A stretch of 53,081 bases of DNA, the filler included, from Catajapyx aquilonaris (taxonomy: Eukaryota), in assembly GCA_000934665.2 (NCBI GenBank). It is 2 parts of 2 records of this genome, joined end to end, with 100 filler letters (N's around TTAATTAATTAA, not from the genome) between each part and the next. Parts side by side here need not be neighbours in the genome. Positions count along the whole stretch, not along the records: positions 26,600 to 53,081 come from JYFJ02005195.1; 1 more part is not named here. The stretch is one strand, 5' to 3'. Positions 3 through 53,081 of the stretch are shown here, one piece after another; the stretch's first letter is position 1, and each line of letters starts with the position of its first letter. A program made the translations under genes and the position numbers. Under the pieces are notes generated by a model. That model saw only the letters and a program-made list of their open reading frames with translations, was not told the DNA's origin and did not search any database.

Positions 3-596
3 ACCCAACACTCCCTCATACCCCGGGCGAGAGACACCCACCCAAGAATTAAAATCCCCTGCAAGAATTATCCTGTCATTACCACTGAACCCATCCAGCA
101 CAGCACTTAAGCTATCCCAGAACCTCTCCTTATCCTCATCTGGAGATGAGTCAACTGGTGCATACACAGCCACAACCACAATCCTAGTCTTAACCACCTT
201 CAGACTCACCCACATTATTCTCTCACTAACCTGACTATATCCTTTCACACAGTGCACCAGCTTAGGACTTATAAGTATACCAACACCTGCACAAGCCCTC
301 TCCCTTTCATCTACACCGGACCAGAAACCTGTTAGCCCATTGAAACCACCCACTGAACACCCCTTCATCTTGGTCTCAGACAAGCACATTATATCTAAAC
401 GAGCATCAACAAATGCTTTTCTAACAATATCACACTTATTATGAATCCCTCTTACATTAACAATGGAAAGTCGAACCTCTGAGTTTTTTAGTCTTTTCTT
501 ACTACCCACCCCACCTACCCCCAAACTTCGAACATTCCCAGAATCTAGGAGAGAAACTGAACTTAAATTAGTATGACTTGCGGTTCTCCCGATCAT
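3..596 (-). mobile_element. 5' part of a non-LTR retrotransposon ORF (APE-type endonuclease, RTE-like); runs off the left edge
   Basis: My translation from ATG 596 gives ...VRLSIVNVRG...LDIMCLSETK...SERIMWVSL...VAVYAP...RIILAGDFNSWVG...GYEGVLG. These are the NVRG, LSET, YAP and GDFN motifs of LINE endonucleases. Start and end are in the same frame; the ORF is missing from the track because no stop lies in the window. Confidence 0.88.
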
Positions 597-1139
597 CTCT
601 TCTCGACCAAAAAGGAAAATAACTGGAGCGAAGGTCAGGCACTCGCAGCAGGTTCCAGGCGTAACCATGGAACCCCATAAATACGATCGCCATAAAATGT
701 GGAAATGAGTATCATCAGGCTTTTAAAGCCTAACGGCCTAACATCATGTAATAAATTGTTAATGTACAAAAAATATCGCCAAAATAGAAGATCACATGAA
801 TATCCCATCTCATGTTTACTTGCATCTTTTCATTTTACTTGCAATTACCTTATACACCGTAACCTCAACTAATATTGCCCATAACAGAACTCCGTCGGCA
901 AGGAAGGCCTATAATAGCTGATGGCATAATGATAATCTACCTTCATCGCTGCAACTATGGTCATCAGATTGTAGTCTGCTGCCTAATAATTCATTTTATG
1001 CAGCTGCTGCAATAGCGCAATTATTATAATAACTCTGGTAAATTATGCTTGCAATACAGACACCAGTCAGTACGGAACGTCCAGAAGCGTCTGAAGATAA
1101 TAATTTTAAAAATATTATGCCAACCACCTGACAGAAGAT

Positions 1140-1403: not shown

Positions 1404-1726
1404 GAGACGTGTTTTTTTCCTTCATTTTTCTTTCCGTTCTGTCCATTCCAATATTTACCAGCCAGACCAGGAAGCACTGGCAGATCAGCCCTGTGAGGAC
1501 CACAAGATTCGGAAGAAGACCCACAGGAGGTGAATGGGTAACAAAAGAGATTAAACTGACCTGATTTTAAGCATTTTGTACCTTACATCACTTGGGTTTT
1601 TATCAGGAAATAGTATTTATTGCTGGATAGTTGCCATCTTCTGCTCTATCTGGTTGATGGTGTGTCCTTTAGCATCTGTGAGGGCAACCAGACGTAACAG
1701 TTTTCATTTTCACATAGGTGGACACC

Positions 1727-4700
1727 ATGGCTACCAGGAGGCCCAGAATCAGAGGGGTCGTGAACCTGTTTGGATGTAGGGCAAGACCCAAGTTGGAAGT
1801 TGAGAGTGATGCACCTTCTGAGCCCAGCCAAGATGTGAAACCAGTTGTGGTCAAAGTGTCGGGAAGCCAAGAACATGCCAAGGCTGCAGAAGTGGTGCCG
1901 ACCGTGACACGACGCAGCCGCCTTAATCGGCCCATTATTAAGGTGCGACCAAGGATTTCTGCGGCGGATAAGGCGGAAGAGCAGGCTCCAGCGAATGAGC
2001 CACCTGCAGCGGAAAACCCAGATGAATCTGCAGAAACCACTAGTGAAGTGCGTATTGAGGGAAGTGAAGCGGCACCGGCGGCACCGGCGGCCCTCGCAGT
2101 CGATGCGCCCATGGAACCTTTCACATTCGATACTGTCCAAGATGTGGTGGAAGTCAGCTCAGAGCCAGAGGTGCAAGTCAAAGCTCGTCCAAGGCTGACT
2201 ATTCCTAAGCCCAATTTGAGTGAAGCTGCAACTGGTGCGAAACGGATCCCCCTGCCTAGCGAGTCACAAGCAGAAGAGCCAGCTCCACCTGCTGGTAAGG
2301 AGCCGGAACTTACCCCACTAACCCCGGTGGATGCAAGTGGCTCCAACCCACCCGACTTATCCAAATCACGGCAGCATCGTCCTGCCGGGCGGGAAAAGGA
2401 TACCCGGCTGATCCAAGCGAGGAAGGAGTTCAGAAAGAAGTTTCAAGCTGGCACACCAGAAAGAAGCAAGATGACCATGTTTGATCTCATCTACTACAAC
2501 CCATCCACCAATGCGCTTGAGTATGTGAATTTTGCTCATTTTTTGGTCCATTCATGCTGATTTTTTGAATAATTTAATACATGATAGGTTCTGGGCCATT
2601 TTAATATTGTTAACAAATCGCTGGATTGTGTGGTGAAATTTGCTTCCCTTTTAGTCAGGAATATGAACTGAAAATACTGCGTGTCTTTAGGGCATGAGTT
2701 AAGCCAAGTTTTTTAGAGCCTATTTATGGCTTGGTAAATTCTAATGAATTGAAACTTCTCAGTGTTTTACACATTGATGCATTGAATTAATTACATCATT
2801 GAATAGGCATCAGTGACAGCAATGTTGTGTGTTACATGAGAGGGAAAATGGTTATGTGACCACCTCAGGTTGCATGGTGATGTGTTTGTAACTCTGCAGA
2901 AAGTTTAAGGAATCTTACGGACTCTTCTTTTCCAGGGGAACAAATAAACCAAAGCCGGATCAGGCTGTAGCTGGAAGGCAGGACGATGCAGAAGAGAATA
3001 CGTAAGTATTGGTGGGCTAAGTGAGGGGTGCTGCTTTGGAGAATAAAACTGGATTCTCTTGGGCTGCCAATTTTCTAATGTGAAAATAATCGCAGCACTG
3101 CATCTCATGATCGGAAAGAAGCCTATTAACTATAGTAAAACTTCTATAAGTTGAACTTCCCTATGTCGAACTTCTCTATAAGTGGGGAGGTGTAGATGGC
3201 CGAGATGGTAACGTCTCGGCTTGCTGAGTGAAAGGCCCCAGGTTCGATCCCCGCCTGGGGAACTTTCCTTTCACCTGCGTCGGGAGGGTCTCTGACCTGC
3301 ACCAAGGAGGTGTCTGGCAACCTAACCTCCTGGGGGACAGCACATGACCCCTTTACCGACATTGCACTTGCACCAATGTTCCCTCCCCAAAAATCCCTAT
3401 ATCCTTACCTCATGTCCTTTCATCCTTGCACCGGAGTTAGAAGAAAAATCAGAAAATTGAAGGAAAAATGGTGGTATTCCACCCCCCTATAAGGGCCTAT
3501 GGCCCTATCACGGGGTAACGTAAAAAATAAATAATAAAAAACTTCTCTATAAGTCGAATAAAATTATGAGCTTGGTTGGTCATGATGCAAAATAATAGGA
3601 AATAAATTTCCCTACCGCGAATTTCTGTAACTCGAAGTGCAGGCAGGGCCTTACGATGGGATATCAATGCATTTTTAGTCTCCCTAAGTTGAAGTTCATG
3701 TTGGTGAGCACAGAAAATTTTCTCATTTCCCAGCCAAAGGGTCAAGCGTTAGGAAACAGCATGAATATGACTGATTGTAATATACAATATGGTGAACACA
3801 TGATAACCTAGGTATCTTTTTCAGGGTATTGAGTGAACGCTTGGAGGAGGAGGCAGTGGACGCACCCATAGCCTTGGACCAACTGGACAACCCTAACCCT
3901 GAAGGAGAAGTGGTTGAGGAAGATGAGGATGAAGGGGGTATGCCAGCTCCCAGGGTGAAGGTGGGCCCAGATGGAGAGCTCATCTTGGACGAGCAAAGCT
4001 TGGTGATTCAGACAACTGCCTCCAAGCAGGCCAAAGAGAACCTAGTAAAGTCTCCATTGGTGTATGAGTCAGGTTCCTCTATAGCCAATTACGGAGCTTA
4101 CATGAAGCGGAAGAGGTCATCGGACTGGGCGAGATGGGACACAATTCGATTCTACAAGGCTCTTAACATGGTTGGAACAGACTTCTCTATGATGCAGACT
4201 GTATTTCCAAAGAGGACCAGGGCAGAGCTGAAGGCCAAGTTCAAGAAGGAGGAAAGGGTGCACCCAACCTTGATTGAGGAGGCGCTTAAGGATGTTCGGT
4301 TTGACCCTAAGCTATTTGTAGAGGAAAATGGGGAGGAAGAGGATGAAGTTGAAGAGAGAGGGGAGGGTGAGGAAGGAAAGAAAAAGAGGAGGCGCAAAGT
4401 GAAGGATGAAGCGAAGGATTACATACCATTACTTCCCTCCAAGAAGAAGGGTTAGTGTCCAAGGCCATGCTTACATGTTGGCTATGTGCAGCAATGACCA
4501 TCGCTGCGCAATGAAACCAAATGTTAGGGGCGAAAGTAGCAATCGAATTCTAAACAATTCATTTCATTGCTGAACATCGCTGAACAAATCGCTCACATGT
4601 AAACGTGGACTAAAGCATTAAATCGCTGTTTTGGGGCCTTTTTTGAGTTGTGAAAGTGCTTGTAACATTTACTTGAGAAAAGGATGTGGGTGTGTGTGTG

Positions 4701-5443
4701 TGCATGTCTGGGTATGCTATTTTGAAGTGGTTGACAATTTCCTTCTTTCAGGCCAGACAGATGCCAAACCAGAAACACCTTGTGGACATCCGAGCGACCC
4801 AGCGGAGGCTCAGAAAGATGCTTCTGAAGACCTTGCGTTCGACCCAAATGACCCACTCTCAGCGCAGTCGAGTGGGTCAGACAACTCTCCTGTGGTAATC
4901 ATACCAGGTCAGCCAACCAGATCTGGGCGCATGCCCAAGCAGAAGAAGCCATACAGCGCAGCAGACTCGGACAAGAAGTGCCCAGTGTTGAGGGCAGCAT
5001 TGGACTCTCCTGCAAGACCACCTGCCCCTGAGACTCCTATGCAGAGGCAATCAACCCTTGAGCAGACTCCACCAAGCTCACCTCCTTCTGCACAATTTCA
5101 TCCAGAACTGCCTGCCCAAGGCCAGTCTACCCCCATACCATTTGTCCCGAACGTGCCCTCACCAGATGTGCAGGAGGCAATTCGTACAGCTGTCAGGAAC
5201 AATCCAGGATTGTCTGCTGTTAGACCTGGAAGTGTGGTGATTGTGACTGGTCCATCCCCTAATAGGCCGAACCACCAGCTCTTCCAGCTCTACGTGGTGA
5301 CCTCTGCTGAGAGAAGAGACACCGATGGTGCTGAGCAGGAGCCTGTGCCAGGGACCAGTCACAACACGACCATGGAGACCATGCCACTGGGGATCCTTCC
5401 ACCTTACTGTGTGCCTCTTGATCCTTCTCAGGGACCAAGTTGA
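1727..5443 (+). CDS. BDP1: TFIIIB component B-double-prime (BDP1), join(1727..2520,2936..3001,3825..4450,4752..5443), 725 aa
   Basis: Motifs MTMFDLIYYNP and APRVKVGPDGELILDEQSLVI, plus the SANT/Myb domain WARWDTIRFYKALNMVGTDFSMMQTVFPKRTRAELKAKFKKEER. All introns are GT-AG with consistent phases (2,2,1). Start context caccATGG follows an acceptor AG at 1716-1717. Confidence 0.92.
3184..3539 (+). mobile_element. tRNA-derived SINE copy 1, in a BDP1 intron
   Basis: A-box TGGCCGAGATGG, B-box GGTTCGATCCC, A-rich tail, 15-bp TSD AACTTCTCTATAAGT (3169-3183 / 3540-3554). Homologous to copies at 24.3-24.6, 25.2-25.6 and 26.6 kb. Confidence 0.92.
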
Positions 5444-22071: not shown

Positions 22072-24263
22072 CTGAAACTGAAGTAAAAAATAATAATTAC
22101 ATTCAGATTACTATACGAATATTGTGTAATACACGAGCTGCTTTGTGTCTAATCCGCAGTGTCAAGTTTGGTTTCATGTGATATCCACTCAAGGCGAAGC
22201 CGTCACTTTGGGTTTGACTTGTGCGAGGAATAACAGTACTGATGATTCTTGAAAGATTCCTCAGTGACATTAATTACGTATATGTAGGTGCGTGTCTGTT
22301 GTTATATCCGGAAACTTTAATTAGACTATGACAATGACATTGAACGGATCTGGCACTTATTACCATGGAATTCCCGGTAGGTTATCTAATACCTTTAAAT
22401 TGACTGCTGTGCCATCAAATTCGATTATTTTCTAGGCAGATTCTCGGAAGAGAATTTATACTGTTGTACTGAACTCTCATTAATTCACTGCGATAGCTAT
22501 ACAAAGACCTACCCCAGGTGCGGCACAATAATTCAGACGCACTCGTAGGGTGATATCTATAGTTATATGCAGAGGTTTCGTTTTTCATTAGAAGTCTCGT
22601 TACCAAGATAATGAGTTTTAAACACAATAGTGTGAATATCGTGGCAGGTGTATGTATCACTCATTGCGACCCTGATACCTTTGTAATATTTAAGTAATGG
22701 TATTACGAAATAAAATTCTATCAGTTTAAAAGTTTCGAGGTTGTAGCCTCGACCTAGGTCGAGACTGCAATATAAGATGGTGTAATGCACATTGTGATTA
22801 ATGAGACATATCCATATCAGCAACGTGTAACTACTAACACATACCTGCGACATGAAATATGCAGGCTCTACGCCAACGCAACCTCTCAACATCTATTCTC
22901 GAAGCAACCAGAATAATAATTAAGAATTGCAATGCCCTTCAATACGTCAGGCAAGGGCAGGTTGCATGAACGCAAGGAGAAAATATCGAATTATATCTGG
23001 ATTCCTATACATAATCTGAGATTATTTCCCCTTTTAATTTGCTACCATACAACTGGCCATAAACTCTTTTCGGTGATGCTGCTGGAGGACCACCTATCAA
23101 GATGCTTTGTCCTAGTCACGATTACAGCATGCTCGATACAAAGTCTGCGTCAGACTTTGTCTTTATGGTAATGGTCGACTGTCTCGTGATCAAAGGGCAT
23201 TGCGATTTGAGAACTAGGGTCAATCGATGCAGCCTGGTCTTTGCTTTGTATACAATGTGTATAACGTTGCAACACGGCTGCAGGTGTAGGTGTCTGTAAT
23301 GAGCCGACCAGAACTGTAATTAGTGCCCCTTTTTTACGCACTGGTGCATTTAATATGTGGGGCATATAATTGTCCTTTAATATACAGTATATGATGTGGG
23401 GCAGGATAAAAATTGTCTGGCTGCATTGGTATGATAATGTCGCCCTTGACTGATGGTTCAGTTGAATGATTTAGGCCTCAGTGCGTAGAGATTACATCAG
23501 CTGTTTCCATAAAGACAAATTCATTGCATGGGAGATACACACGTGTCCTGATGAACCTGGATTAGAAGCGCTCGACATGTATAAACGGCTGGGGGTATAC
23601 TTAGTAAATCAGGGTGATTTTCAAGGTCTCATCAACTCACCAACGCATTATCATGGGGATGGGCAAACGAAATGTTCACTCGCTAATGCTTTTTGCGATG
23701 TAGACACGTTAAAAAGCTCTTGAAAGTCTTGGGAGAAAAATCAACAGTCAAGCAATTTCAGCGGCTTGAAACATTTAATGCCACTCTAAAACGCCCATAC
23801 TTTGTGTATAGGCCTATGCTGTTGGAGTTATTATTCCGAAACTCTTTGCTATTGAGGAAAAACCTGAAACGCAGATCCGATGAAGCTCGTACCTGGATGA
23901 ATCTGCTTCAAAATAGAAAATGATCGGTCATATCAAGAGCTGACCACATGCATTTCACTTGCCGTGGTTTCAATTTGAATACTGCGTAATTCATCAGTAA
24001 CCCAAAGTGACCTTCTCCTGGAGTCCTTGCCCGCTTATATCGAGACTTGCATATAGATGCACAGCTGTATACTATAGGTTGCTTATGAAATTAACCTGAT
24101 CAATTACAATCCTTCCAAAGTGGAAGCGACATCAAACACACCGAGGTATTGACTTGAAAAGCTGTGTGGTACAATACTCTCAAATTATTGTTTAATTAGT
24201 TAATCATATTGACACTTTGTCTTGATTTCTCTGGGAGCACCACGAAGGTCCACAAAGGCTAAC

Positions 24264-24264
<1 letters not shown>

Positions 24265-24330
<66 letters not shown>

Positions 24331-24630
24331 GTTTACCCCGTGATGACCCTTATGGGTGCTATAGGGGGGTGGCATACCACCATCAGTTTTCTGTATATAT
24401 TTTCTGCTTCATTCACCGGTGCAAGGAAACAGGGACAAAGGGAAAGGATAGGGATTTTTGGGGAGGGAACATGGGTGCAAGGTGCAATGTCGTAGCTATG
24501 GGTCATGTGCCAGACAAGGTCAGAGACCCTCCTGACGCAGGTGAAAGGAAAGATCCCCAGGCGGGGATCGAACCTGGGCCTTTCACTCAGCAAGCCGAGA
24601 CGTGACCATCTCGGCCATCTACACCTCCCC
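24265..24630 (-). mobile_element. tRNA-derived SINE copy 2 (short variant) with a (TAA)n tail
   Basis: Reverse complement of the SINE head. TSD CCACAAAGGCTAACT at 24250-24264 / 24631-24645. The (TAT)n microsatellite at ~24265-24329 is its tail. Confidence 0.92.
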
Positions 24631-25230
24631 CCACAAAGGCTAACTGTACAATGTTGATATGCGTGGGAGAGGTGTTTAAAATTATGTGCTGCTGGGATAT
24701 GCGTATTTTAAATAATTGCCCATGACCTAATTGAAGGGGTTTCACCTTGATCTTCGCCACACTGCACTGCACTGGAATTTTGTTTGGCGCTATATGAGTG
24801 TCGGTTCAATTACTGTCGGTTATTAAGCAGCAGGATGAGGCGCAAATTCATATCAGGAATCATCACGACCGACTGCACATTCACTAATGCCAAATCGTTA
24901 CATAGCCTGTTATTATACTCATTGACGCAAATGTCAGTCGCCGATATCATGACTTGCTTTTTCCAGTTATATTTTAATCCATCCTTAGCATTATTTTGCG
25001 AATAATAAAGAAAAATTGGGCGCCCTATTTTGAGCATGGAGTCTATGCAGCATGATTTCACTCTGATCAATATGTGAGAATAATTTTATATATAAGGTCA
25101 AACTCAAAGGCAGATGCAGCGAATGCATGGTGGAATGCATGGTTACAGACTATAGTTACATTTGTTAGTATGATGACATAATCTGGGATGAGTAAACAGG
25201 CATGTGATTAATTTCATAATCAGTGTTGAC

Positions 25231-25583
25231 GGGGAGGTGTGGTGGCCGTGATGGTAACGACACGGCTTGCTGAGTGAAAGGCCCCAGGTTCGATCCCCGC
25301 CTGGGGAACTTTCCTTTCACCTGCGTCGGGAGGGTCTCTGACCTGCACCAAGGAGGTGTCTGGCAACCTAACCTCCTGGGGAACAGCACATGGCCCAAAA
25401 GCCATAGGACAATGCACCTGCACAAGTGTCCCCTCCCCAACAATCCCTTTCCCTACCCTATATCCTAGTATTCCTTGCACGGAGACTGAAGTTAAAAAGA
25501 AAATAGAAAACTGTATGGTGGTCTGCCACCCCTCGAAAGGCCCATAGAGGGCCATCAAGGGGGTACGTAAAATATATATATGA
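25231..25583 (+). mobile_element. tRNA-derived SINE copy 3
   Basis: Same head and body as copy 1. 13-bp TSD AATCAGTGTTGAC at 25218-25230 / 25584-25596. Confidence 0.92.
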
Positions 25584-26499
25584 AATCAGTGTTGACACAG
25601 ATGCAGACTCACAGACTGAGCCGGGATGCAATACGAATTTATTGAAATGCCCAGGATATTGGGCGTGAAGTCAGTGTCTCTCACAGACTGGTGGAAATGG
25701 AAGTTCGAGAATATTATACTGGCAATTATGACTTATGAAAACAATAAATAATGGTGTCACCGGTCACATGCACCAAATCCACTTTACAGAACATTTACCT
25801 TTTAGAAGGGGTTATGTTGTACATCATTATTTAATTTTTTTATTATTATTTTACTCGTATAAAGAAGTATACCCTCCTGAGACCCGAGAAGAATTGAGTA
25901 ACGGAATGTCAGTTCCTATTGCATTTTCTGAACATTTTCCCAATAAGAAACGAGAAAAAAAATTATAATTCTAAAATATTGAAATTAATCATGACAGACA
26001 ACCAATGAGAACATTAGGACTCAATTGCTGCTACAAAAGCGGATAAATGTTGAAAAGTTAAATGCCACTCAATTGATCACTCACATAGTGCTCTATAACC
26101 TCAAACAATGTTTTTTTACATTCATTTGTGGAATTCATGGGAGCAAATCCTCTCAGAAGACAATTAAAGGTAAATATGAAATTATTTGAAAGGCCCCCAC
26201 ACCAGGCATGGCCCTTTTTCCTTCCCGTATGACCTCCGAATTTCAAGAAAATCGATGTATGGCACTTGTAAAGTGTCCCTTGTTAGTGGTATAGTCTACA
26301 TACATATACATTATACCAGTATCTGTACTTATTCGGAATTTATTGGACCGACCATGCCATTGAGGCCCAACAGCAAGCCCAACAGCCCAAACAGTATCTG
26401 TACTGTACAGTAGGGCGGCTCGAAAAACACTTTTTTTTTCGAAAGTTGTAGTTCGCTAGTGAAAAAAAGTTGTGTTGGGCGATCCTTTTAACAGGTAAA

Positions 26500-26599
26500 N
26501 NNNNNNNNNNNNNNNNNNNNNNNNNNNNNNNNNNNNNNNNNNNTTAATTAATTAANNNNNNNNNNNNNNNNNNNNNNNNNNNNNNNNNNNNNNNNNNNN
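26500..26599. other. Assembly gap with an artificial TTAATTAATTAA linker (26544-26555)
   Basis: Two 44-N runs flank a 12-mer that has stops in all six frames; total length is exactly 100. Confidence 0.93.
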
Positions 26600-38338: not shown

Positions 38339-40039
38339 TTAGTCTGCATGTTCATGATCTCTCTGTGCTTGAGCTTCCTGCCATGCTGTCCTCACAGCCT
38401 GGGCCACCTTTGTCCAGAGCGTTGACTTCAACAAAACTCTTGCTGCACAGCCAGCCAGAAAGAGCCAGGCAGCCCAGAGCCATGGGTCAGTGCCATCGTC
38501 CATGCTGGATGGTACTGGCCCATCAAAGTCTGCAGAGGTCACATTAAGAGGTGAATACTCGGTAGAGGCAACCAAGTCTGTGTGACGGCTCACAAATGCT
38601 GCCATGGCCTCTAAGGTGTACTCACTGCCATTAAATTTGGCTGCTGGCTTTGAATTGTGAAAAAGCAACACGGTTGGGACTGCAACCACACCTAGCTGTG
38701 TGTTTAGTGTCTGTTGGCGCCATGAAAATGAAGCATCAAGAGCTAGTAACGGGAGAGTTGGGAAGGCACGGGCCAGGGCATTAAAGTGAGGGGCAGCCTG
38801 GCAGCTGAATGGGCACCACCGTGCGTAAAACAGGACTAGGGAGCATGGCCCTTCAGAGGAAGATCTGTCCTGCTCAAGTGGTGGAGTGTTGTTGGACCAT
38901 GGACGATACGTAGAAGCAACCCAACTAGCATTTATCAGCTGAACTGAAGGTAGCGTGCCTTCAGGGAGTTTCGCACGTGGAGCACAAGCCAAGCGAGGTG
39001 TTGTTGAGTTAGTGGCTTCGTCATTGATGTCATCATCTTCAGGAGTAGCAGGATTACTTCCATTTGTGACCTTGTTCTCACTTGGGACATCATTCATCTG
39101 GTCTGAAGCGTCAGGTATTGATTCTGAAATCAAATGTAGAACATATTATCAACACATTGTGCATGGAAAGCATTACTTAGAAGGTTTACTCTTATGCAGT
39201 ATACAGTAGAATCTCGATTATCTGTCACCCACGGGTCCAGGGCATGGTCGGAACATAGCAAAGGTCGGATAATAAGAGGAGTAAGAAAACTTTCATGAAA
39301 CACAACAAAAAACATAATAAACAATGAAGTATCGTACAATATTATGGTTATGTAAGAAATAGTGAAGTATAATATATTTATCTTTCACATAAACACTCAA
39401 CCCTACTGTATTTACAATTTAACTGAGGCATTGCAACAAATGCATAGTACACTACAGTATTTGTTGAGAAAACATTGTTTATCCGACTGCTCGAGCAATA
39501 AATCTATGTTTTCTCAACAAGTACTGTAGTGTACTGTGCATTTGTTGTATTGCCTTAGTTAAATTGTAAATAGGATAATCCAAGGTCAGATATAATCGGG
39601 GTTCTACTGTACTAGGTTTCTTCAACAATACACTCCTTGCAGGTACTAGTGTAAATTTCTACTAGACCTAACACAACAGTGAACTCCAAGAAGAGGGACA
39701 CATTTGTTCTATTCAAAATTTCAATTATACAAAGATGGCAATAACCTTGGCAATAACCTATTAGTGAATTTATGTAATTGGGAGATGCAGGCAAGATACA
39801 ATCAAGACGTGACAGAGTCCGTTTACATCAGAAGCTAGTTCTTCTAGTGATCTATCTCAGAAGCATCTCAATTCTGCACAATCCCAACCACACCTCAAAC
39901 ACTATCGATCGAACCTAGATATGTGGCGAAGCTAGCTTCGTATACCTGCTTTCATTGGGGCGTCTTCCTCCCCTTGTCCCACACAGAACAAGGCCAGGCT
40001 GACCAGGGCAAAGCAGTACACTCCAGGCAGTGTCTTCAT
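38339..40039 (-). CDS. TXNDC15: Thioredoxin domain-containing protein 15, complement(join(38339..39123,39946..40039)), 292 aa
   Basis: Signal peptide MKTLPGVYCFALVSLALFCVGQG, thioredoxin fold LVLFYARWCPFSCQAAPHFNALARAFP...GVVAVPTVLLFHNSKPAAKFN, C-terminal TM WLWAAWLFLAGCAARVLL. The single intron is phase-1 GT-AG. Confidence 0.88.
39204..39609. mobile_element. Tigger/pogo-type MITE in the TXNDC15 intron, containing an internal 164-bp palindrome
   Basis: TA-CAGTAGAATCTCGATTAT ... ATAATCGGGGTTCTACTG-TA. Confidence 0.8.
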
Positions 40040-42209: not shown

Positions 42210-45200
42210 TTAATTAAATTCCAGGTAGGTATCCCCCTTACAATAAGGTTGATGAAAGTGCACTTCAATTGCTGAACTCTTTACTTCAAGGCACCTCCAG
42301 CAAAAGTGCACTTTGCATCTCTCACATGTCATATGGTTGCAGCCCTCATTCTTCTCTATGTAAAACCTGCAATTGGGGCACAACTTACGATTTGCAGGGT
42401 CTTTGCTAACCCATTTTTTCAACATGTAGTCCTCATCAATTTTAGTTTTATCATAGTCTTCACAGGTCATCCCATGGTGATAGAGTACCTGACACCTAAA
42501 AAGTGGTAAAATTGTGTAAAATGTCATGAAGCTTTTCACTACCAGAATGCCAATACTGACACCATCTACAACAAGTGAGCATGCAAGACTAGAAGCAAAA
42601 ACTTTAAAATGCTGACAGAGGAGCTTGCCTTGTGCAAATTTGGTTGGAGCAAAAGGGACATGTCCACTTCGAATTTCCCTCTGAACCACTGCCTGTACGG
42701 AACACTCCACTGCAATTGGGCGAGGGGCAAAACTTCAGATGGCACTTGCTGTGCTGGTCTTGAACTGCCAATAATTGTTGAACTGCAGCATTTTCAAACT
42801 TCCTTTGAATATTTTGCGGCAACTTCTTCATCATGTCCAACACGTCCCAAACACTCCAGCTTTCCCCACAATCCTACAAAATTGAGGCCAACATAAATGA
42901 CATTTTCTAACTAACTTTTGAGTGCAAATTCATACCTCTCTAGAGCATTTCAAGGGCAGGACACATGCTTCAAGTTGTCTAACAAGACAATCCTTGCAAT
43001 AAACATGTCCACATACATTCAGTGACACACATTTTACTGCAGCCGTGAAGCAAATCCCACACTCAAGGTCATCTTCCACCAAATTCTCTCCACCTGACTT
43101 CACTTGATTCTCAGTATCATCTATCATATCTCTCACCTACACAAATAAATAAACACAAAGAGAAAGGGCAACATTGCAGATCACACAATTCTGCCATAAA
43201 CTGCACCTTTTGTATGGAGGTCTGATTCCCAAGAACGTGTATTTCAGACTTATGATAAAGCTGCATGTGAACTTTGCAGGCTCCAGCATTTTCCCCAACA
43301 TCCACCAATGTGGGTCCATGCTGAGCTAGCAATTTTGCTATAACTGATCCAGATGACACAACAATCACTTCTTCTCTGACTCCTTCATGTGAATCTAACT
43401 CTTGCAGGATCCTGTTAACCCCCAGCAAATAAATGGCATGGTCCCGAGTAGCATATACTGTTATTATACCTACTTGTTCATCTCTATCTTCGCTGTTTCA
43501 ATTGCAGTCTTAGTACCAAAAATGACCAGCTCATTTCTTACATAGTTGTGTTGCATGATTGTGTTTGTTTTGAGTTGAACCTTGTTGAGCATGCCTCCTG
43601 ACCTCTCCTCTAGAGCTTCAGCCAAGGCAGACAGAGTTGGGCTACAGCTTAGAGCAATGCGCTCACCTGAGTGTGAATTAAATATTAGGGTTTCAGAACT
43701 TAATTAAATGGTTTAATATTTACCATCTAGAATATTTCTGAGAGCATGTGAGGCAATTCCTAGCAGCTCACTATGGGGTGTTGTTATCTTCAAACGAATC
43801 ATCTCCTTGTTTTTCACTTCACTGTCAATAACTTCTAAATCCTTTTCCCATGTCTGAAGAACAGATAGGACCATGTTGAAATGAATTAAAAACCGTTTCC
43901 AAAAGGTACACAAAATTGAGAACATTCAACATGAGGTAGCTGACAAATGTACTTGCCAGTCACCAACAGTTACTCATTGGTTCCTTGCAAAGCTACTGAA
44001 TACTAAAAGCAGCTGAAGAAAAAGAAGCTGATGCAAAAGTCATGCAGCATGTGTTTTTACTTAAACACTCAACAACACTGATAAGTGAGTTTATGTAAAA
44101 TGTTGAACTTGATAAAATTTCGCAGGGCTGACAAAGATTTTCTTGGTTAAGTCCACAAATGATACAGTACATCCTGTACGTATACACATATCCCATGAAA
44201 GACAGCAAAAAATGAATGATAGAAGAATAAGAAATACAGTGTATTAAATTTCTTATCTGCATTTGTTCTGAACCCATGTGTCCAATACACACCAAAGGCT
44301 CATGCAACCCTTTGCTCTTCAGCCACATTTTCAAAGCTGCTATGAAATTACGATCTGCTCTGAATATGAAAGCATATAAGCCGTAGCATGACATTGACAC
44401 CATGCCTTGTTCTCCTGCTTGCGTGAAAAATTTATTTGACATTTATCAGGAAGACACAAATTTAATACATATTAATATTATGTCTTGAAGAAATGGCACA
44501 CTAATGTCTTACACATAAGCACTTTCTACTACCAGCAACTTCAAAGATCCTAGCCAATGCAGAGAAACTCATGACAAATGGACGAGTCTGATCAGATTCC
44601 TGGACATTTCACCACAGACCATCATATTAAAAAAGCTGACATGAATATATCAGTGTAGTCTTACACTTACGTATCACCTTTATCTGAATGTAACATAAAT
44701 GTAACACAAACAATGAAGGTCTGGATGATGTATCCCATATGGGTGAAAGCCTCACCTACATTGTTATTATTGCAATTTTTTCGAACATGTCTGGGGAAAA
44801 TTTGCATTCCTAATTCATTTTTCCTGGTCTTTTTGTGCAAACCATGTTATGTCTGGACTATGTGGCAAAATGCTTCTAAAAGCCTTTGCATCTGCTCTGA
44901 CAGTTCAATGAATATAAACATTCAGGTGCTCAAGTTAATAATAGATTATAGAGGATGGAGTACTGCCCATATCCCCCGTTCAACAGGGGCTATATGATGA
45001 TGTGTTAATTAAGGCGAAGGAACAATTTTGAAGAGTAAATATACAGCATATAGCCTTCATGGTGGCTCTTAAGAAGCTTCTTCTCCTTCATCTGGTTGCC
45101 AAGGTTAACAATCCAGATTCCCTATTTGAAAAACGGGGTTTGGCAGTGAACCACCCTTTATATGTGCAATGACATGTGAATCAACCCACATCCCAGTAGT

Positions 45201-48200
45201 TTGTCACTGCCCACTCTCCTACCTTGAACATCAGTTTCATCTCCTCAGACATGGAAGTAATATCTTCCTTCACTTTACTGTATACTTTCTTGGAGCAATA
45301 GTGATCCGCTTGCATCTGAGAAGAAATACCACTGAGTTTTTACATCATGCAAATACAATACCCATTTCTTACCTCCAGCTTGCATGTCAGTGGAACAGGT
45401 ACACCAAGTATCCCAAGTCCCATGTTTTTCCATACTCCATTCAAATGCTTCTGCAACTTGGACCCCCAGAAAGGGTCACTGATGTACACCCGGGCAATCC
45501 AATTCCAATTTCTACCACCAAACACCTGAACATTTTCATTACCCTTCGCATCATATCCAAAGGATGACAAAAGTTCCAGGAATCTCTTCTTTGCATCCTG
45601 TGTGCAGAAATAAGAATGGAATAAGGCAATGGAATTCCAATCTTTTTACTTGACTACTGAACAAATATTAGGGCAGAGTAGCAAAAGCAAGCTCATCAAA
45701 CTTATCAGGAACTATACTTTAGCGTTTAGCCAATAACCCTCCCCTACCACAGCTTCATCATATGCGCAGTACATACTCATATGGGGCAATTTAATGATTG
45801 TGGTAGCTAGATAGAATTGACCATGCAATTTTTCAGCACAATAAAATTGTAATGTCACATGGCATTGCCTTATTTGTCGTCACTATTAAATTTATTATGG
45901 GTAAGAAAAACTCCGAGATCCACGCTCATGTACGTATATGCTTGACAAGAAAGCTTTTGTTGGTCATTTATGGCTGCTTCGGCTCATTTATTGAAAACCT
46001 TAGCGATGTGATGACTGCCACTGCTTGGACAGTCCTTGACCAAGCACCAGAGGGGCAAAAAATGCTTTACATCTGCTGATCTACTCTTTCCAATTTGGTC
46101 CCCCGGATATGGCGCCGTCATGGTTCTAAGATTCAGATATGCTCATGCAAAAATGAACTACTCCCACTATACATAGTTTTGGAGGAACTACAATGTAAAG
46201 TGATGAACTCTTGTTCCTCTGGTATCACCACACAATGAAGTAAACTCCTGCCAATACAACTAACAAGTCAGCAAGAGATCGGCCCTACCACCTCATGAAA
46301 ACACTTGTACACCTGTTTGCCACTGTTACTGAGGACTGACAATCACTGAATGTGTCACAGTAACATAACCTAGACTACTAGCACATCAATGTATGTGCAA
46401 CACCCAAGATCTAGAATCCAGACATGCTGTCACACTCACATCACCAAATGAGTAAAATTATCTCTTTACCGCTCTCTCCCTCAAATACAGAGATATGGGT
46501 AAGTGATCCTTCTCAATGTTTATTCACCTTTGTATTATAGAGAAATATATTTGGGTTAATTAAAAAACCTGTCTTTCTTTGGTCTATGGATTCTGGTCTT
46601 CCCATCTCTTGGAAAACTCAAGGAGGCTGCTTTCCCTGAACCTTCTACAAAATCCTCCCAATGCTAATCTACAAGGTTCATTCAAATGTAAGACATTCAG
46701 TGAATTGGAAACAGACCATTGTTACAAAGTCCTGGAATATATTTCATATCTAAAAATTTCTGTACATAAGTTTCATCCACTGGTGTACTTTGTTGTCACC
46801 AGGGTGGCAGGAGAGCCAAAAGATACTCTGAAAGGGAGCCAAACAGGGTAGAATAACCTAATAGCATGTTTGTTCCTGGCCCTAGCATTATGTCACTCAC
46901 TTTAAATGGAATAACCTGGTAGATAATTATTCTGATGTGGCTGAAGAAAAAATAGAGGAAAAAATATCAGCTGAAAAAAGTTCGAAAGTTTCAAACCATT
47001 ACCAACAACTAACTGGGAATAATATTTCCAATTACATTTTTCCTGTCATGTCACTTTATGGTTGACAGCATGTATGACTGTCAATCATTGGTGATATTTC
47101 GCTATGCTACAGGAAACTGCACAAATAAAACTGAATCATGCTTTCAGATGGCTATTAGCTAGTGCATTTCTTTGCCATACTACCAAGTCATATTAAATGT
47201 CATTCTTCCTGAAATTTTGATGATAGTGTGACATGATTGCATAATAGGAAAAGAATGTCTCTGGAGGACTGGAAAAAAACTATTTCAACTTGAAAAACCC
47301 ACCACCACATTTTTTGCTCCCATCAATAGGGCGAAAATATGTCAAATATCATAGCATGATACCTGACCATCCTCTCAGGAGTCCATAAACTTCCATGCAG
47401 GCCTATAAAATGAATATTGCAGGAAAGCAGCCAGCATCGTCTATTACAATGCTTATTAGTTATAACACAGTGAACATAGGCAATTGTGATTTTTATTCTA
47501 CTGTGTGCACATGCATCACATGCACAGCAGTACTTTAGTGGTAGGGCCTCTATTATGTCTACTTGTGAAACAAACTCCCTACACGTTCCAATGTACAACT
47601 AATTTACAAAGCAAGAAAGCATCAATCAAAGTGCATGCACATGGTAACTTACTTCAGCTGTCTCCTTGGAAGCATCCCGAAATATAACCACCTTTGGTTT
47701 CTCCTTGAACTCCACAACCAACCACTTTTTTACAGCATCTTCCAAATCTGCTTCTGTGGTAAAGGGAGGAAGATTCCCAGGAATAAACAAAGTCTTAGGA
47801 TCCTTTTTGTCAGGTCTCCACTTGACTGAGGCTACTTCCCTTTGGCTACGCACCAATATGGGACCAAGGTGAGAGCCAACTTTGTAGTAGTCATCCCAAC
47901 AATTAAACTCCACTTTCCCTCTTCCATTGCATTTTCGCTTCGGCCATTCCACTTCAAGTACGCAAAGAGCAGAAACTCTTTGACCTCTTTTTACCTTATA
48001 TGGCCTTGATTTACAGGGCAAAGATTCTGCCCGCAAAAGAGCTGACCTTGCATCAAGGGTACTGCTAAAATTTATGCACAAATCTCTCACTTCCACTTCC
48101 TTGCCAGATTTCATCAAGAAAGAAGAGGTGGCTCCTCTAAATAACTGGACCACAGACTCACACACCTCAGTTGGCCCTGATTCTAGAACAATAGCCAAAA

Positions 48201-50342
48201 AGTCTCCTGGTAGGAGCACATCAACCACAATTCCCCCACTGCCAAGCAAAAGATCTGTATGATCTGCTCCAGACAACGGCCATGGCTTTTTCTCTGAGCG
48301 AGCCTCATCCTTGCATTTAGACATTGCAGCATCTACCGTCTCCTTCATCTGAGAAAAAATTATCATATTACTTTTATTTTTGTTCTGATTGTATTTCACG
48401 AAAATTATTTGTGCACTCACATCGTTGTGGATTGATGGAGCTGCATTGATTTGGAGCAATCCTTTTTCTTTGGAGTAATCAAGGACATACATGCTTCTAA
48501 GCTCAGATTTTTCATTGGTAGAAGTTGTAATGTTGTCAAGATCAGTCTTCAGTTTTTTAATGGCTCTGAGGAAGCATGAGCCTATATGATGTTTCTGAGT
48601 GGTTGCACAAGTTGCCTTGGCCTGATCCATCTTTTCTCTTGACACTTTCCCTGCTTCCAACATTACATCGACCCATTCTGACTTGACTTCATTTACACCA
48701 TGCATGAAGTCTTGGCTTGTTTTCAGAATCTATTGAATAATAATTATAATGTCAAGCTAGTATTTCACTCATCAGTTATACACAGTGGGGCCGTCCAGAC
48801 GGGCCAACCTTAGCCGCGGCCAGCCGCAGCTGGTCGAGGCCGCGACGGTTCACACGGCAACGGCCACGGCTCAGAAGTTGGCCAAGTTGGCCGACTTCCT
48901 GGAAGTTGGCTCGCTGCTTGGCCACGGCTTGGCCTCGGCGACGGATACTGCGCGTCACTTGTTTTTCGTTGCTGCCATGACTACCGACCACTATTACAAA
49001 TGCGGGTGGCTGTTATTAAAATATGTGCCCGTCTGAACGGGTACCGTGGCCAGCCGTGGTTCCGCAAGCCGGGGCCGACGCCAGGGCCGCGGCCAGCCGC
49101 GGCTAAGGTTGGCCCGTCTGAACGGCCCCAGTGTTGCTAACATGAAACAGATTGTAACCTGGTCAAAGACAATCAACTGAGGATATTTGCCCAAGTAGCT
49201 GAAAGATGCTGATGGATGCATTTTGACAACTTCTCCACTCTCAACCACGGTGTATCCCAAACGAGGGTGGCCTCGGTACACGCACAAGTTCTTAACTTGT
49301 GACTCAGCAACTAAATGGCATATAGAGTCACATGTTCTTTCCTTTTCCTCAGGATGATCACTAAATACATGTGCAATCTCTTTTCCAAATTCTCGCCTCA
49401 AGGTATCTTTTACTTCCTTCATTACTTCATTTATAGCCTGAAACATTTCATGTAGGTTAGAGATTTTTGGTAAAACAAACTTAAAGTGCCAATTACCTTC
49501 ATTGATTTGCCATTAATGTAGTGTTTTTTGCACCACTTTCCCCTGGCCTGTTCATTGGACACCCACCAGGCTATGAACACCTCCATAGCGGTCATGAGGT
49601 CACCACTCTCCTGGCAGAACAGCATCCTCCTGGAGTCAGCTTCCTGAATATTTTCCTCAGAACCTGCTCTGAAGAAGACAGCACTCCCAGCTGCTTCCAT
49701 TATTGACACTGCGCATAATGCTTCAAAGTGCCCCTCCTCTTCCTTCAGGGACCTCAACAGAAGGTGGCCAAGGGATGGGGCCAGAGGAAGCTTGGCCAGA
49801 TCCGTGCCCAAATCCGTCATAGCTACTACTCCATCTGTAGAGACTACAAGTGCTGCCAGAGTTGTGAGGGCCAACATGGCTGCCTCTAGTGCATCATCAC
49901 TTGGCCGCTCCAGAAAATTAAATTGCAATGGCTTAGAGACTCCCAACTGCACAAGTCTGAGGATGGCTTGCCCAAGGTGTGTCCTGAGTATTTCAGGGAC
50001 CATCCCTTCCTTCATGTCCTCATAGTCTTTCTTTGAGTAAAGACGAAAACATTTCCCAGGAGCCATCCTTCCAGCCCTACCCTTCCTCTGCTCAGCAGAG
50101 CTGCGGTTAATTGGTCCCAAAACCAGGCTGGAAGTATTCCACTTGGCATTGTACATTCTTTCTTTAGCAATCCCTGCATCCACTACATACACAATCCCAG
50201 GGATTGTCAGGGAGGTCTCTGCGCTGTTCGTGGAAAAGATAACCTTACGGTAGCCAACTCTGGCAGGATCAAACACCAGGCGCTGCTCCTGCTGCTGCAG
50301 TCTTCCATGGAGTTGAAGAACTTGCACATTGCTTCCAGACAA
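42210..50342 (-). CDS. DEAH-box RNA helicase - RBR E3 ubiquitin ligase fusion (plant DEAH11/12-like architecture), 5'-partial. Exons: 49497-50342, 49159-49437, 48421-48729, 47653-48348, 45373-45597, 45223-45315, 43724-43853, 43474-43666, 43207-43411, 42936-43136, 42629-42873, 42210-42495 (~1235 aa seen)
   Basis: Helicase motifs [40 protein letters not shown] and GKCFRLYS, with HA2 ([11 protein letters not shown]). RING1 [29 protein letters not shown]...[18 protein letters not shown]2 [27 protein letters not shown]. Phases are consistent across all 12 exons. The RecA1 domain (GKT/DEAH) was not found in the window. Confidence 0.9.
48787..49129. mobile_element. GC-rich PIF/Harbinger-group MITE with 3-bp AGT TSD
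   Basis: AGT-GGGGCCGTCCAGACGGGCCAACCTTAGCCGCGGC ... GCCGCGGCTAAGGTTGGCCCGTCTGAACGGCCCC-AGT. Confidence 0.82.
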
Positions 50343-51589
50343 CTGCATGAGTAAAATAAAATAATATCAAGTAAAGGTGTGACAGTATTAATAATAATTA
50401 ATTTTCTCACATTACTTTTGATGTTATTCATTGTACAAAGTAGGTGTGAGTAGTTACGGGCATCACTTACGTTAATAATAGTTTAAAATGGGTAGAATGG
50501 CAAAAAGATTACTTTGGTTCCGAATATGACATGAAAGCAAATCAATGAGCAATGCAAATTTTAACAGAAATTTTGAAAGTATTTTTTGTCACTTGAACTA
50601 CAACACTGAAGCTTAGTTAACAACTAACTCTACCAGTAACAAACATTACTAACATTAACAGTAATTACAGGAAGTCCACGGTTTACTAACAACACAACTT
50701 ACAACCTGACTTACGATGTTATGTAGCCTACTCACGAGCAGGCTCCCCATAACAATAATATAATTATATCTCCACTTTCAATCACTTCTGCATGTTGACC
50801 GACAACAAGTTCGACATACTTGCTGTAGAATTAATATTCAATTTGGAAATTACTTCCTTTCACGCATGCAAACAAACCTGCATGGCATAAGTGGTTTGTA
50901 TGATTACCACATACACGCTGTTCATCAGGAGTCCGAGTTACGAGCAAATATGGCTGATGAACGTTCTCAGGAATGTATCCGTAATGTTTGAAACCGAGGA
51001 TTTCCTGTACAGTTGGAAAATAAAATCTATGGAAAAAATTGTTATTTGTAAAGATTGACAATCGGAGGTGTTTGCATGCCCTCATGGCTGAAGTATTCTT
51101 TCTTGTGAAAACATTAACCCATACTGTTGGGTTGAGAGGTACATTACTGCCTAACCAGTGAGAAAACCCTGACACCATGCATTAGGCCAACAGTCTGTTC
51201 GCGATATTGCAATTCTGGCACTTCCTTATTTCTGCCTTGGGGCTACAGTATGAAAAAATCATTTTGGATCAATTTCAAAAACGTCGTGAAAAGAAGATCT
51301 GGTAATGACAGCATACGTTTCTCTCATTGCTGTGCACATGCATGTTGTGGTGGGACTATCTCTTACCCTACTGCAGTAAGATCAAGACCCAAACTATCTG
51401 GCATAAGCAATACAAACTTCCTTAATTTCACTGCTATCCTACAAATGTGTTGCCACTCTTAAAATTCAAATCCTTGTAGTGTACGGGTAGTGTTGGTTTT
51501 ATGCCAGTTCAATGAAGTGGCTTAAATTTTTTGCCATGGTTGGGCTTCTTCCACTGCTGTACAGCCAGGAAATTCAGCAACAGATTATA

Positions 51590-52477
51590 CGAGGGCATAT
51601 CAAAAAGTTTTGGCCCTGAGACAGATGGACACATCCCCTTGGACTGTGCTGCCAACATATAGTAGGCACATCTACTACTAGTGCCAGGTGCAAGTGTCAA
51701 TGCGATTGCGTAATTCATTGCAAAGTTACAGCTCCGAGAAGACAGCAAGGTGTTGGATGCTGCTGACAATGGAGAAAATTGAGTATCGCTCTGTTATCAA
51801 GTACCCCATAAAGAAGGGAATGTCGGCAAAGGAGATTTACGAAGACATGCGAGAAACGGTGGGTGATGATGCTCCACCATACACCACAGTCAAGAACTGG
51901 GTTCGCGACTTCAAACTGGGAAGAGAGCGACTTGAAGACAACCCCCGCTCTGGGCGCCCAACAACGCCGACAACAGTGGAAAGTCCACGACCTGATGTTG
52001 GCAGATCGTCGGATCACTGTCCACGAATTGGCCACCGCTGTGGGTATCTCATATGGGTCGGTCCACAACATCCTGACCGACACGTTGGGATTCCACAAGG
52101 TTTGTGTGAGATGGGTGCCCACGCCAGACCAGAAGCGCTCACGTGTGACTCTTTCCGAGGCTGCCCTTGCCCTCTTCCTCGCAACCCCTGATGACTTCCT
52201 TGCTCGGTATGTCACCCAGGATGAAAGCTGGATTCAACATTATGACCTGGAGACGAAAGCCCAAAGGAAAGAGTTCGTGGACGACACTTTGGCGGCTGTG
52301 GATGAGTGGTTGGGAGGGGTCGACAAGAACTTCTTCCTCCATGGTATCCGAAGGCTGTAGCACCGCTGGTGCAAGTGTGTGGTAGTGTGAGGGGACTATG
52401 TAGAGAAGTGAAAATAAAATAATCCTCCTCTGCTTATTGGTAGTGTCTCGGGGCCAAAACATTTTGATATGCCCTCG
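51590..52477 (+). mobile_element. Internally deleted, frameshifted mariner transposon (irritans/Himar-like N-terminus)
   Basis: TA TSD and TIRs CGAGGGCATATCAAAAAGTTTTGGCCC / GGGCCAAAACATTTTGATATGCCCTCG. Transposase starts at 51769 (MEKIEYRSVIKY..TVKNWVRDFKLGR..RSGRP) and carries RWVP, VTQDESW and the C-terminal GDYVEK*. Frameshift near 51980; most of the catalytic core is missing. Confidence 0.95.
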
Positions 52478-53081
52478 TAAATTGGCAGTTGGATGACAAG
52501 ATCAGTGGCTTTGTGAACCTTTAACTGCAAAATACAGTATTTTTCATTCAAGGAATCAAATTACCTTAGCATCAAATTGAAAATAAACTACAGTAATTAA
52601 GTTGTGTAATAATCTAATGCAATCTTTGTAAGCATGGGATGCTATCATTTCAAATTAAAATACCCTACTTATGATCTAATACCATGTCAATTATGTTTCC
52701 ATCGCCTCTTGCGCGAAACAAATTTTCCGAAAAAATGCCACACTTATGTGATTTTAAAAAACGCGTTCCCAGTAATTATTCACATTTACTTTTGTCATTA
52801 CAGCGAATGCCTTTTTGTGTCATTTCATTAATTTCACATCAATTATGTGCTCAGCATGCCTGTAGATAACATATACAGGGTGATCAAACTTTTTTGTCGT
52901 TTTAGTTATTGACAAATTCGGCCTAAGCTGCTTATATTGTAGCCCGTTCCCTGGCAACCCCGTCCGGCGGGCCAATTCAAACACCAGCACATGGAGAATG
53001 CTTCCATTGTTGCCACTGTTTACAAATCGAGTGAGTGACGCGGACGACCCAACGACGGGCCTCTTCTGCTTGCGCACTCAC

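Follow-up and report, generated by a model that had tools for sequence, protein, structure and literature searches.

Whether an RNA helicase and an RBR ubiquitin ligase are encoded by one and the same gene, and to which family such a gene would belong, is the question raised by a minus-strand locus at positions 50342 to 42210 of a 53,081-nucleotide (nt) stretch of the Catajapyx aquilonaris genome (assembly GCA_000934665.2), referred to here as the window. In our reading, to which we give a probability of roughly four in five, the locus holds the 3' three-quarters of a nuclear gene, resident in this genome, that encodes a helicase-RBR ligase of the DEAH11/DEAH12 or 'Helicase/Plant I' type; it would be a strongly divergent representative, from the arthropod lineage, of a family that is widespread in invertebrates. 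Judged by its sequence, it is an unusually divergent member of an old and catalogued family and not a new system.

Gene model and profile evidence for one chain

The gene model was rebuilt from three-frame views of the minus strand. It comprises 12 exons running from 50342 down to 42210, with the phase kept at every junction, and the spliced model of 3,708 nt is divisible by 3 and reads as 1,235 codons with its sole stop at the terminus. Ten of the 11 introns have GT-AG boundaries and the remaining one GC-AG; four of them measure 133, 429, 1,369 and 2,055 nt, while the others are short, at 57-72 nt. A first-pass annotation of this DNA had proposed such a phase-consistent 12-exon chain, which we could confirm: the positions 50342, 48348, 47653, 43853, 43207 and 42210 all coincide with splice sites. 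Its further argument, that the many introns point to a long-resident nuclear gene, is supported by the multi-intron model.

To place the locus among known proteins, exon 1 was compared with longer proteins; of 8,000 scored, 6,095 matched at an expectation value (E)<=0.001, and the best 120 of these relatives were examined. A family profile built from 71 full-length relatives was then searched against all 2,730 pieces of open reading frame (ORF) in the six frames of the window. The helicase exon was matched with E=1e-121, the OB exon with E=3e-19, the middle exons (48729-47647) with E=8e-25, and the RING1, IBR and RING2 exons with E=3e-9, 7e-8 and 2e-28, respectively. These exon-level matches share one strand and follow the order of the profile; the E-values taken together with the colinearity put the match far above chance. 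As a single piece, the spliced protein aligns to profile positions 464-1667 with 918 bits. From these alignments, all the modules lie on one predicted polypeptide in the order seen in the family.

Some of the junctions deserve comment. The third intron (48420-48349) is 72 nt long, in frame and without a stop, and hence the reading frame does not force it; it is supported by a GTGAGT donor, a T-rich acceptor ending in CAG and its being an insertion relative to the family profile, with the profile score rising from 893 to 918 bits once it is spliced out. An 11-exon model in which 48420-48349 is coding was accordingly dropped in favor of 12 exons, given the donor and acceptor signals and the profile score. 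Between exons 8 and 9, the adopted pair of donor 43473 and acceptor 43412 retains the helix-like end of a KH segment, which the alternative pair of donor 43517 and acceptor 43458 would excise; the latter was therefore dropped. The GC-AG intron (42628-42496, minus strand), with the donor GCAAGC, separates the IBR exon from the RING2 exon, and no in-phase GT donor at 42496-42628 preserves the C-x2-C spacing of the IBR.

One could instead suppose that two adjacent genes, a helicase remnant and a separate RBR gene, have been mistaken for one chain, as a terminator and a promoter might conceivably be concealed in the long introns of 2,055 and 1,369 nt. However, the phase is preserved at each exon junction, and the exons beside both of these introns match adjoining profile positions without gaps. 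Moreover, the chain is colinear with relatives in which the fusion is a single protein: by counts using sub-profiles built from 71 of the same 120 proteins, 97 of the best 120 relatives have the family RING2 plus RecA2, and 95 have RecA1, RecA2, KH3 and RING2 together (median 1,688 amino acids). We consider two separate genes to be very improbable.

Helicase, RNA-binding and ligase modules

To score the modules one by one, sub-profiles were cut from the relatives at the sites of their DEAH11-specific Pfam domains and scored on the spliced protein. Exon 1 (49497-50342, minus strand as are all the exons, 282 codons) encodes the RecA2 and HA2 region of the helicase; in addition to the family-profile match, it is recognized by Pfam Helicase_C (E=1e-11) and by the RecA2 sub-profile with 131 bits. 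Among solved structures, its best match is DHX8 (E=4.5e-51, the alignment spanning query residues 8-281), and DHX15/Prp43, Prp22, DHX16 and Prp16 are the other close ones. Its translation contains a 12-residue segment (50196-50231) and the sequence QRKGRAGR (50067-50090), the latter in columns that are near-invariant in the homologue alignment, which we take to be motif V and motif VI of DEAH helicases. The OB-fold region of the DEAH C-terminal domains is encoded by exon 2 (49159-49437, 93 codons), and exon 3 (48421-48729, 103 codons) supplies the end of the OB/C-terminal helicase region and a linker, as part of the 84-bit match over 48729-47647. The OB sub-profile scores 62.7 bits across exons 2-3, and Pfam HA2_N is weak on the helicase part (E=0.47). 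On this evidence, the predicted protein has a RecA2 domain with motifs V and VI as well as the HA2 and OB C-terminal domains. The spliceosomal helicases DHX8/Prp22, DHX15/Prp43, DHX16/Prp2 and Prp16, which are the best structural matches of this RecA2-HA2 exon (E from 4.5e-51 to 1e-44), share the same motifs V and VI but lack both the RRM/KH middle and the RBR ligase.

At the other end of the chain, exon 10 (42936-43136, 67 codons) encodes RING1 of the C3HC4 pattern, with its final cysteine supplied by exon 11. The latter (42629-42873, 245 nt) encodes the IBR domain and is followed by the GC-AG intron, while exon 12 (42210-42495) contributes the remaining IBR ligands and RING2 (Rcat) and closes with the TAA stop at 42212-42210. 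Pfam RING models match exon 10 with E between 3e-4 and 4e-3, under their cut-offs, whereas IBR matches exon 11 with E=4.5e-7 and IBR_1 exon 12 with E=3e-12; the RING1, IBR and RING2 sub-profiles score 23.4, 38.4 and 58.4 bits, respectively. All the zinc ligands (Cys/His) of RING1-IBR-RING2 are kept. RING2 is closest to those of CUL9, ARIH1 and ARIH2, with every cysteine retained in the alignment. The catalytic context NEGCNHMTC noted in the first-pass annotation is present and aligns with EGC-x-HMTC of CUL9, the codon of the predicted catalytic cysteine being 42339-42341; the RING2 cysteine is described as the site of the ubiquitin thioester in RBR ligases (PMC5758712). The predicted RING1-IBR-RING2 is thus complete, inclusive of this cysteine. 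The Ariadne-type ligases ARIH1/HHARI, ARIH2 and CUL9 share the RING1-IBR-RING2 order and are nearly identical in RING2 around the catalytic cysteine. However, an Ariadne domain is absent from the window gene, whose RBR is instead partnered with the helicase and RNA-binding modules, and hence its regulation likely differs from theirs.

The middle of the protein begins with exon 4 (47653-48348, 232 codons), where the relatives have the RBD_DEAH11 and RRM_DEAH11 domains. At the position expected for them, the RBD sub-profile reaches 12.8 bits and the RRM sub-profile 23.5 bits. An AlphaFold2 model based on an alignment with 30 relatives has a mean predicted local distance difference test (pLDDT) score of 84.3 and displays two beta-alpha-beta-beta-alpha-beta units, and its best Foldseek matches in the PDB are tandem RRM proteins, namely DND1, Sex-lethal, Pub1, NONO and HuD, with E from 9e-5 to 1e-3; the template-modelling (TM) scores are low, as expected for two flexibly linked domains. 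Exon 4 is accordingly modelled as the RBD/RRM pair of the family with a tandem RRM fold. Exon 5 (45373-45597, 75 codons) encodes a divergent linker before the KH region, placed by its splice sites, phase and continuous profile alignment, with no Pfam match.

Three KH segments were positioned by colinearity with the profile, of which the third has fold support. Exon 6 (45223-45315, 31 codons), defined by its splice sites and with a profile match of E=1.5 when taken alone, begins the region that matches the first KH of the relatives; the KH1 sub-profile match is partial, at 9.9 bits. The KH region continues in exon 7 (43724-43853, 130 nt, ending in phase 1), placed by its splice sites and the continuous profile alignment, and exon 8 (43474-43666, 193 nt, phase 1 to 2) holds the second KH-like segment, placed by colinearity; the KH2 sub-profile finds no significant match on the spliced protein. 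The third KH domain, encoded by exon 9 (43207-43411, 205 nt), is matched by the KH3 sub-profile with 9.3 bits. The AlphaFold2 model of its 68 residues has a pLDDT of 73.5 and the beta-alpha-alpha-beta-beta-alpha order of a type I KH fold, used for residues 14-68 only, as the alignment misplaced the first ~21 residues onto the DEAH region. Nearly all of the Foldseek matches listed are type I KH domains (Nova-2, hnRNP K, FUBP1), with TM-scores of 0.5-0.63 and weak E of 0.035-0.3. Pfam matches to PapC_C (exon 9, E=0.012) and WecG in the middle exons were judged spurious.

By these models, the middle comprises a pair of RRM-like folds together with one KH fold or more. RRM or KH folds had been anticipated in 47653-48348 and 43207-43853: AlphaFold2 and Foldseek bear this out for the first interval with two RRM-like units, and for the second in the one exon that was folded there, 43411-43207. 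The MEX-3 family offers a functional analogy only, in that it has KH modules and a ubiquitin ligase on one chain, and one of the structures matched by exon 9 is KH2 of MEX-3C; however, MEX-3 has a simple RING instead of an RBR and no helicase, and homology is implied for the KH fold only.

Relatives and earlier knowledge of the family

All 26 organism-named entries among the best 120 relatives are from animals. They include bivalves (four Mytilus species, Mizuhopecten, Ylistrum, Mercenaria and Mactra) and the chiton Liolophura; the brachiopod Lingula, the nemerteans Lineus and Tubulanus and the tubeworm Lamellibrachia; the corals Stylophora, Desmophyllum and four species of Acropora; and two crustaceans, the lobster Homarus and the krill Meganyctiphanes. 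Several of these are named 'ATP-dependent RNA helicase DEAH12, chloroplastic-like'. With 16 named proteins of this kind (for instance, from Lingula, Mizuhopecten, Acropora and Homarus), the window gene is colinear over ~1,230 residues, with E from 1e-129 to 1e-175, and shares the same catalytic motifs and RBR layout; unlike in them, its middle region is hardly recognizable by sequence.

Pfam has curated DEAH11-specific RBD, RRM and KH models, those for the three KH domains ahead of the RBR being KH_DEAH11_1st, KH_DEAH11_2nd and KH_DEAH11, and in each of the four relatives scanned we recovered Helicase_C, OB_NTP_bind, RBD_DEAH11 or RRM_DEAH11, KH_DEAH11 and IBR. The link to Arabidopsis DEAH11 (At4g01020, DCS4) and DEAH12 (At5g10370) is made through these animal relatives: the DEAH11-named models match the relatives, and the window gene is colinear with the relatives. 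This upholds the family assignment of the first-pass annotation. The predicted order in common is a DEAH core, HA2/OB, RBD/RRM, KH and a C-terminal RING1-IBR-RING2. The window copy differs from the two Arabidopsis proteins in being too divergent for the DEAH11-specific Pfam models, in its animal host and in that its RecA1 half is outside the observed sequence.

The Helicase/Plant I subfamily is counted by Marín (2010) among three ancient RBR subfamilies, present in unikonts and in bikonts alike, with independent losses of helicase RBR genes in multiple animal lineages (PMC2904391). In view of this, of the many full-length animal members and of the curated DEAH11 Pfam models, the ranking of the locus by the first-pass annotation as the top candidate in the window for an undescribed system is not supported. 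In Arabidopsis, DEAH11 is reported to be DCS4, which co-precipitates with Prp8/DCS3 and whose mutation suppresses cop1-6; the authors of that 2024 study term it 'apparently plant-specific' (PMC11180117). Against that term stand the many animal proteins that share its architecture and the DEAH11-specific Pfam domains. In cotton, GbDEAH12 is presented as regulating lint percentage negatively, as interacting with a NAC factor and as acting in fibre initiation; in the passages on this protein the term 'RBR' is absent and the lone mention of 'ubiquitin' is the name of a promoter (PMC13407882). Animal members surfaced in only two places in the open-access literature searched: as a nuclear marker locus in clams (PMC8765752) and, in a single mention from red coral, under a 'spliceosomal' annotation that was differentially expressed (bioRxiv 10.1101/2025.05.12.653513). 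That literature yielded no functional study of an animal member, in agreement with what had been supposed at the outset.

Proposed action, alternatives and surroundings of the locus

If the gene acts as its architecture suggests, the RRM and KH modules together with the DEAH core would, from what is known of the family, bind RNA or a ribonucleoprotein (RNP). ATP would then drive translocation on, or remodelling of, the bound RNA, in the 3'-5' direction on single-stranded RNA if RecA1 is present. RING1 may take the ubiquitin-charged E2 (E2~Ub), from which ubiquitin would pass to the RING2 cysteine and on to a nearby protein of the same RNP. The likeliest setting is a nuclear RNP such as the spliceosome, which we nevertheless hold at clearly less than even odds; it is drawn from the association of Arabidopsis DEAH11/DCS4 with the spliceosome and the proximity of the helicase core to DHX8/Prp22. 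We rate membership in the family as far more certain than this setting.

Several observations weigh against our reading of the locus and its action. Within the window, 50343-53081 included, no ORF piece on either strand matches profile positions 1-462, which correspond to RecA1 with motif I (GxGKT/S) and motif II (DEAH). Hence, what the window shows is part of a helicase, and the DEAH type is assigned by homology to DHX8 and its kin, the DEAH motif being outside the observed sequence. Of the DEAH helicase-RBR architecture claimed in the first-pass annotation, the RecA2/HA2/OB part, the RNA-binding middle and the RBR therefore stand, but the DEAH motif itself does not fall in the window. In the middle, Pfam at E<=10 finds nothing on exons 3-7, and KH_1 on exon 8 (E=0.11) is below threshold; the DEAH11-specific RBD and RRM models likewise give no score on exon 4. 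A phmmer search with exon 4 against 1.84 billion representatives returned 3 matches at E<=0.001, the best being 33% identical, and the 367-residue ORF at 47626-48729, used as a query against longer proteins, gave no match at E<=0.001 among 4,478 candidates. The loop between the first two helices of the third KH domain reads GPTL instead of GXXG, which makes canonical RNA binding by it uncertain. While the helicase exon is 42-52% identical to the relatives, full-length identity is 27-31% to the 16 named relatives aligned over their full length. Further, in a quick FastTree analysis of 30 sequences over 1,174 columns, midpoint-rooted and without an outgroup, the window gene forms a long branch by itself and does not join the sequences from lobster and krill; orthology to these two is hence not shown, and we draw no inference of orthology or horizontal transfer. 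As for the action of the protein, the spliceosome link depends on the one plant study whose authors call DCS4 plant-specific, and the open-access literature searched yielded no E3 ubiquitin ligase assay of any member.

In the same tree, the 'DEAH12-like' protein of Homarus americanus groups with scallop proteins and not with krill, which could reflect contamination, paralogy or long-branch effects.

Two mobile-element-like features lie near the 5' end of the chain. A remnant of a mariner/Mos1-type transposase (51682-52360, plus strand; Pfam HTH_48, E=7e-11) is found upstream of exon 1 and is spread over two overlapping frames, indicating that it is broken. Intron 2 contains a GC-rich insert (48775-49141) whose two ends are inverted repeats of 56 nt (48775-48830 and 49086-49141) that are 86% complementary; this intron has 58% GC as against 25-42% in the others, and the insert looks like a miniature inverted-repeat transposable element (MITE) or a foldback transposon.

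How the RecA1 half is accounted for separates our reading from the possibility that the locus is a 5'-truncated or decaying copy without RecA1. It would then be either a pseudogene of recent origin or a paralogue that lacks the ATPase and has its start close to exon 1. Upstream of the exon 1 acceptor, the frame reads ...LLMQ and an ATG is present at a distance of 9 nt; the 2.7 kilobases (kb) upstream hold the Mos1-type transposase remnant and no RecA1 exon; and the MITE-like insert in intron 2, the single non-canonical GC donor and the extreme divergence, with a middle invisible to Pfam, would all fit decay. However, 1,235 codons over 12 exons are free of frameshifts and internal stops, and the zinc ligands, the catalytic cysteine and motifs V and VI are kept along with confidently predicted RRM and KH folds, which argues for continued selection. 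Exon 1 opens at a strong acceptor, a T-rich tract that ends in CAG, and the relatives carry on upstream of this point; the frame is closed 8 codons upstream, so any earlier exons would have to be located elsewhere. Since introns reach 2 kb in other parts of the gene, one of >2.7 kb would be unremarkable. We therefore regard a truncated copy as unlikely, and favor a resident gene whose RecA1 exons would lie upstream of the window, past an intron of >2.7 kb that holds the mariner-type transposon remnant.

The uneven divergence of the protein bears on another proposal, that of the first-pass annotation, by which an E3 activated by RNA would serve innate defence or ribosome quality control: it would sense viral, transposon or stalled-ribosome RNA via the helicase and the RRM/KH modules and then ubiquitylate targets. 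The middle has diverged far beyond the catalytic parts, as is evident from the 42-52% identity of the helicase exon against 27-31% overall and the 3 phmmer matches of exon 4, and this is a pattern seen in arms-race genes. Among the bivalve matches, several paralogues occur per species; for example, Mercenaria has three loci on a single contig and Mytilus is represented by several proteins, which is compatible with lineage-specific expansion. Yet relaxed constraint also yields fast divergence of linker and RNA-binding regions, and the open-access literature searched yielded no induction, interaction or localization data for any animal member. The functional reports, as far as their passages on these genes extend, are limited to splicing and photomorphogenesis in Arabidopsis (PMC11180117) and fibre initiation in cotton (PMC13407882). 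Such a sensor role seems improbable to us. We likewise give little credence to a more specific version, in which an arthropod-lineage, fast-evolving RNA-sensing E3 would have kept its catalytic ends while its RRM/KH middle changed as in a defence or genome-conflict factor, or in which a variant without RecA1 would be an ATPase-independent RNA-binding RBR ligase.

Elsewhere in the window, a neighbouring ORF at 38339-39145 (minus strand) combines a Pfam Thioredoxin match (E=9e-10) with a hydrophobic stretch at its C-terminus and probably encodes a membrane protein with a thioredoxin domain. ORFs at 1718-5443 (plus strand) belong to one gene with Myb_DNA-bind_7 (E=4e-27) at 3796-4455, a domain typical of the TFIIIB subunit BDP1. 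The open-ended ORF at 3-722 (minus strand) has an endonuclease/exonuclease/phosphatase domain (E=4e-6) and looks like the 5' part of a retrotransposon of the long interspersed nuclear element (LINE) type that runs off the window. A near-identical peptide, VRDPPDAGERK-PQAGIEPG, is common to the ORFs at 24213-24605 (plus strand) and 25220-25585 (minus strand), which suggests inverted repeat copies ~1 kb apart; a long poly-Leu run occurs near 24.3 kb. The 89 N letters at 26500-26543, 26556-26599 and 33380 were read as assembly gaps or masked stretches.

Taken as a member of the DEAH11/DEAH12 family, the Catajapyx gene belongs to an old and hardly studied group that has a wide distribution beyond flies, nematodes and vertebrates. 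It is not a new kind of system but a predicted helicase-coupled ubiquitin ligase that has been overlooked by model-organism biology, and this arthropod gene model adds a data point on the patchy retention of the family.

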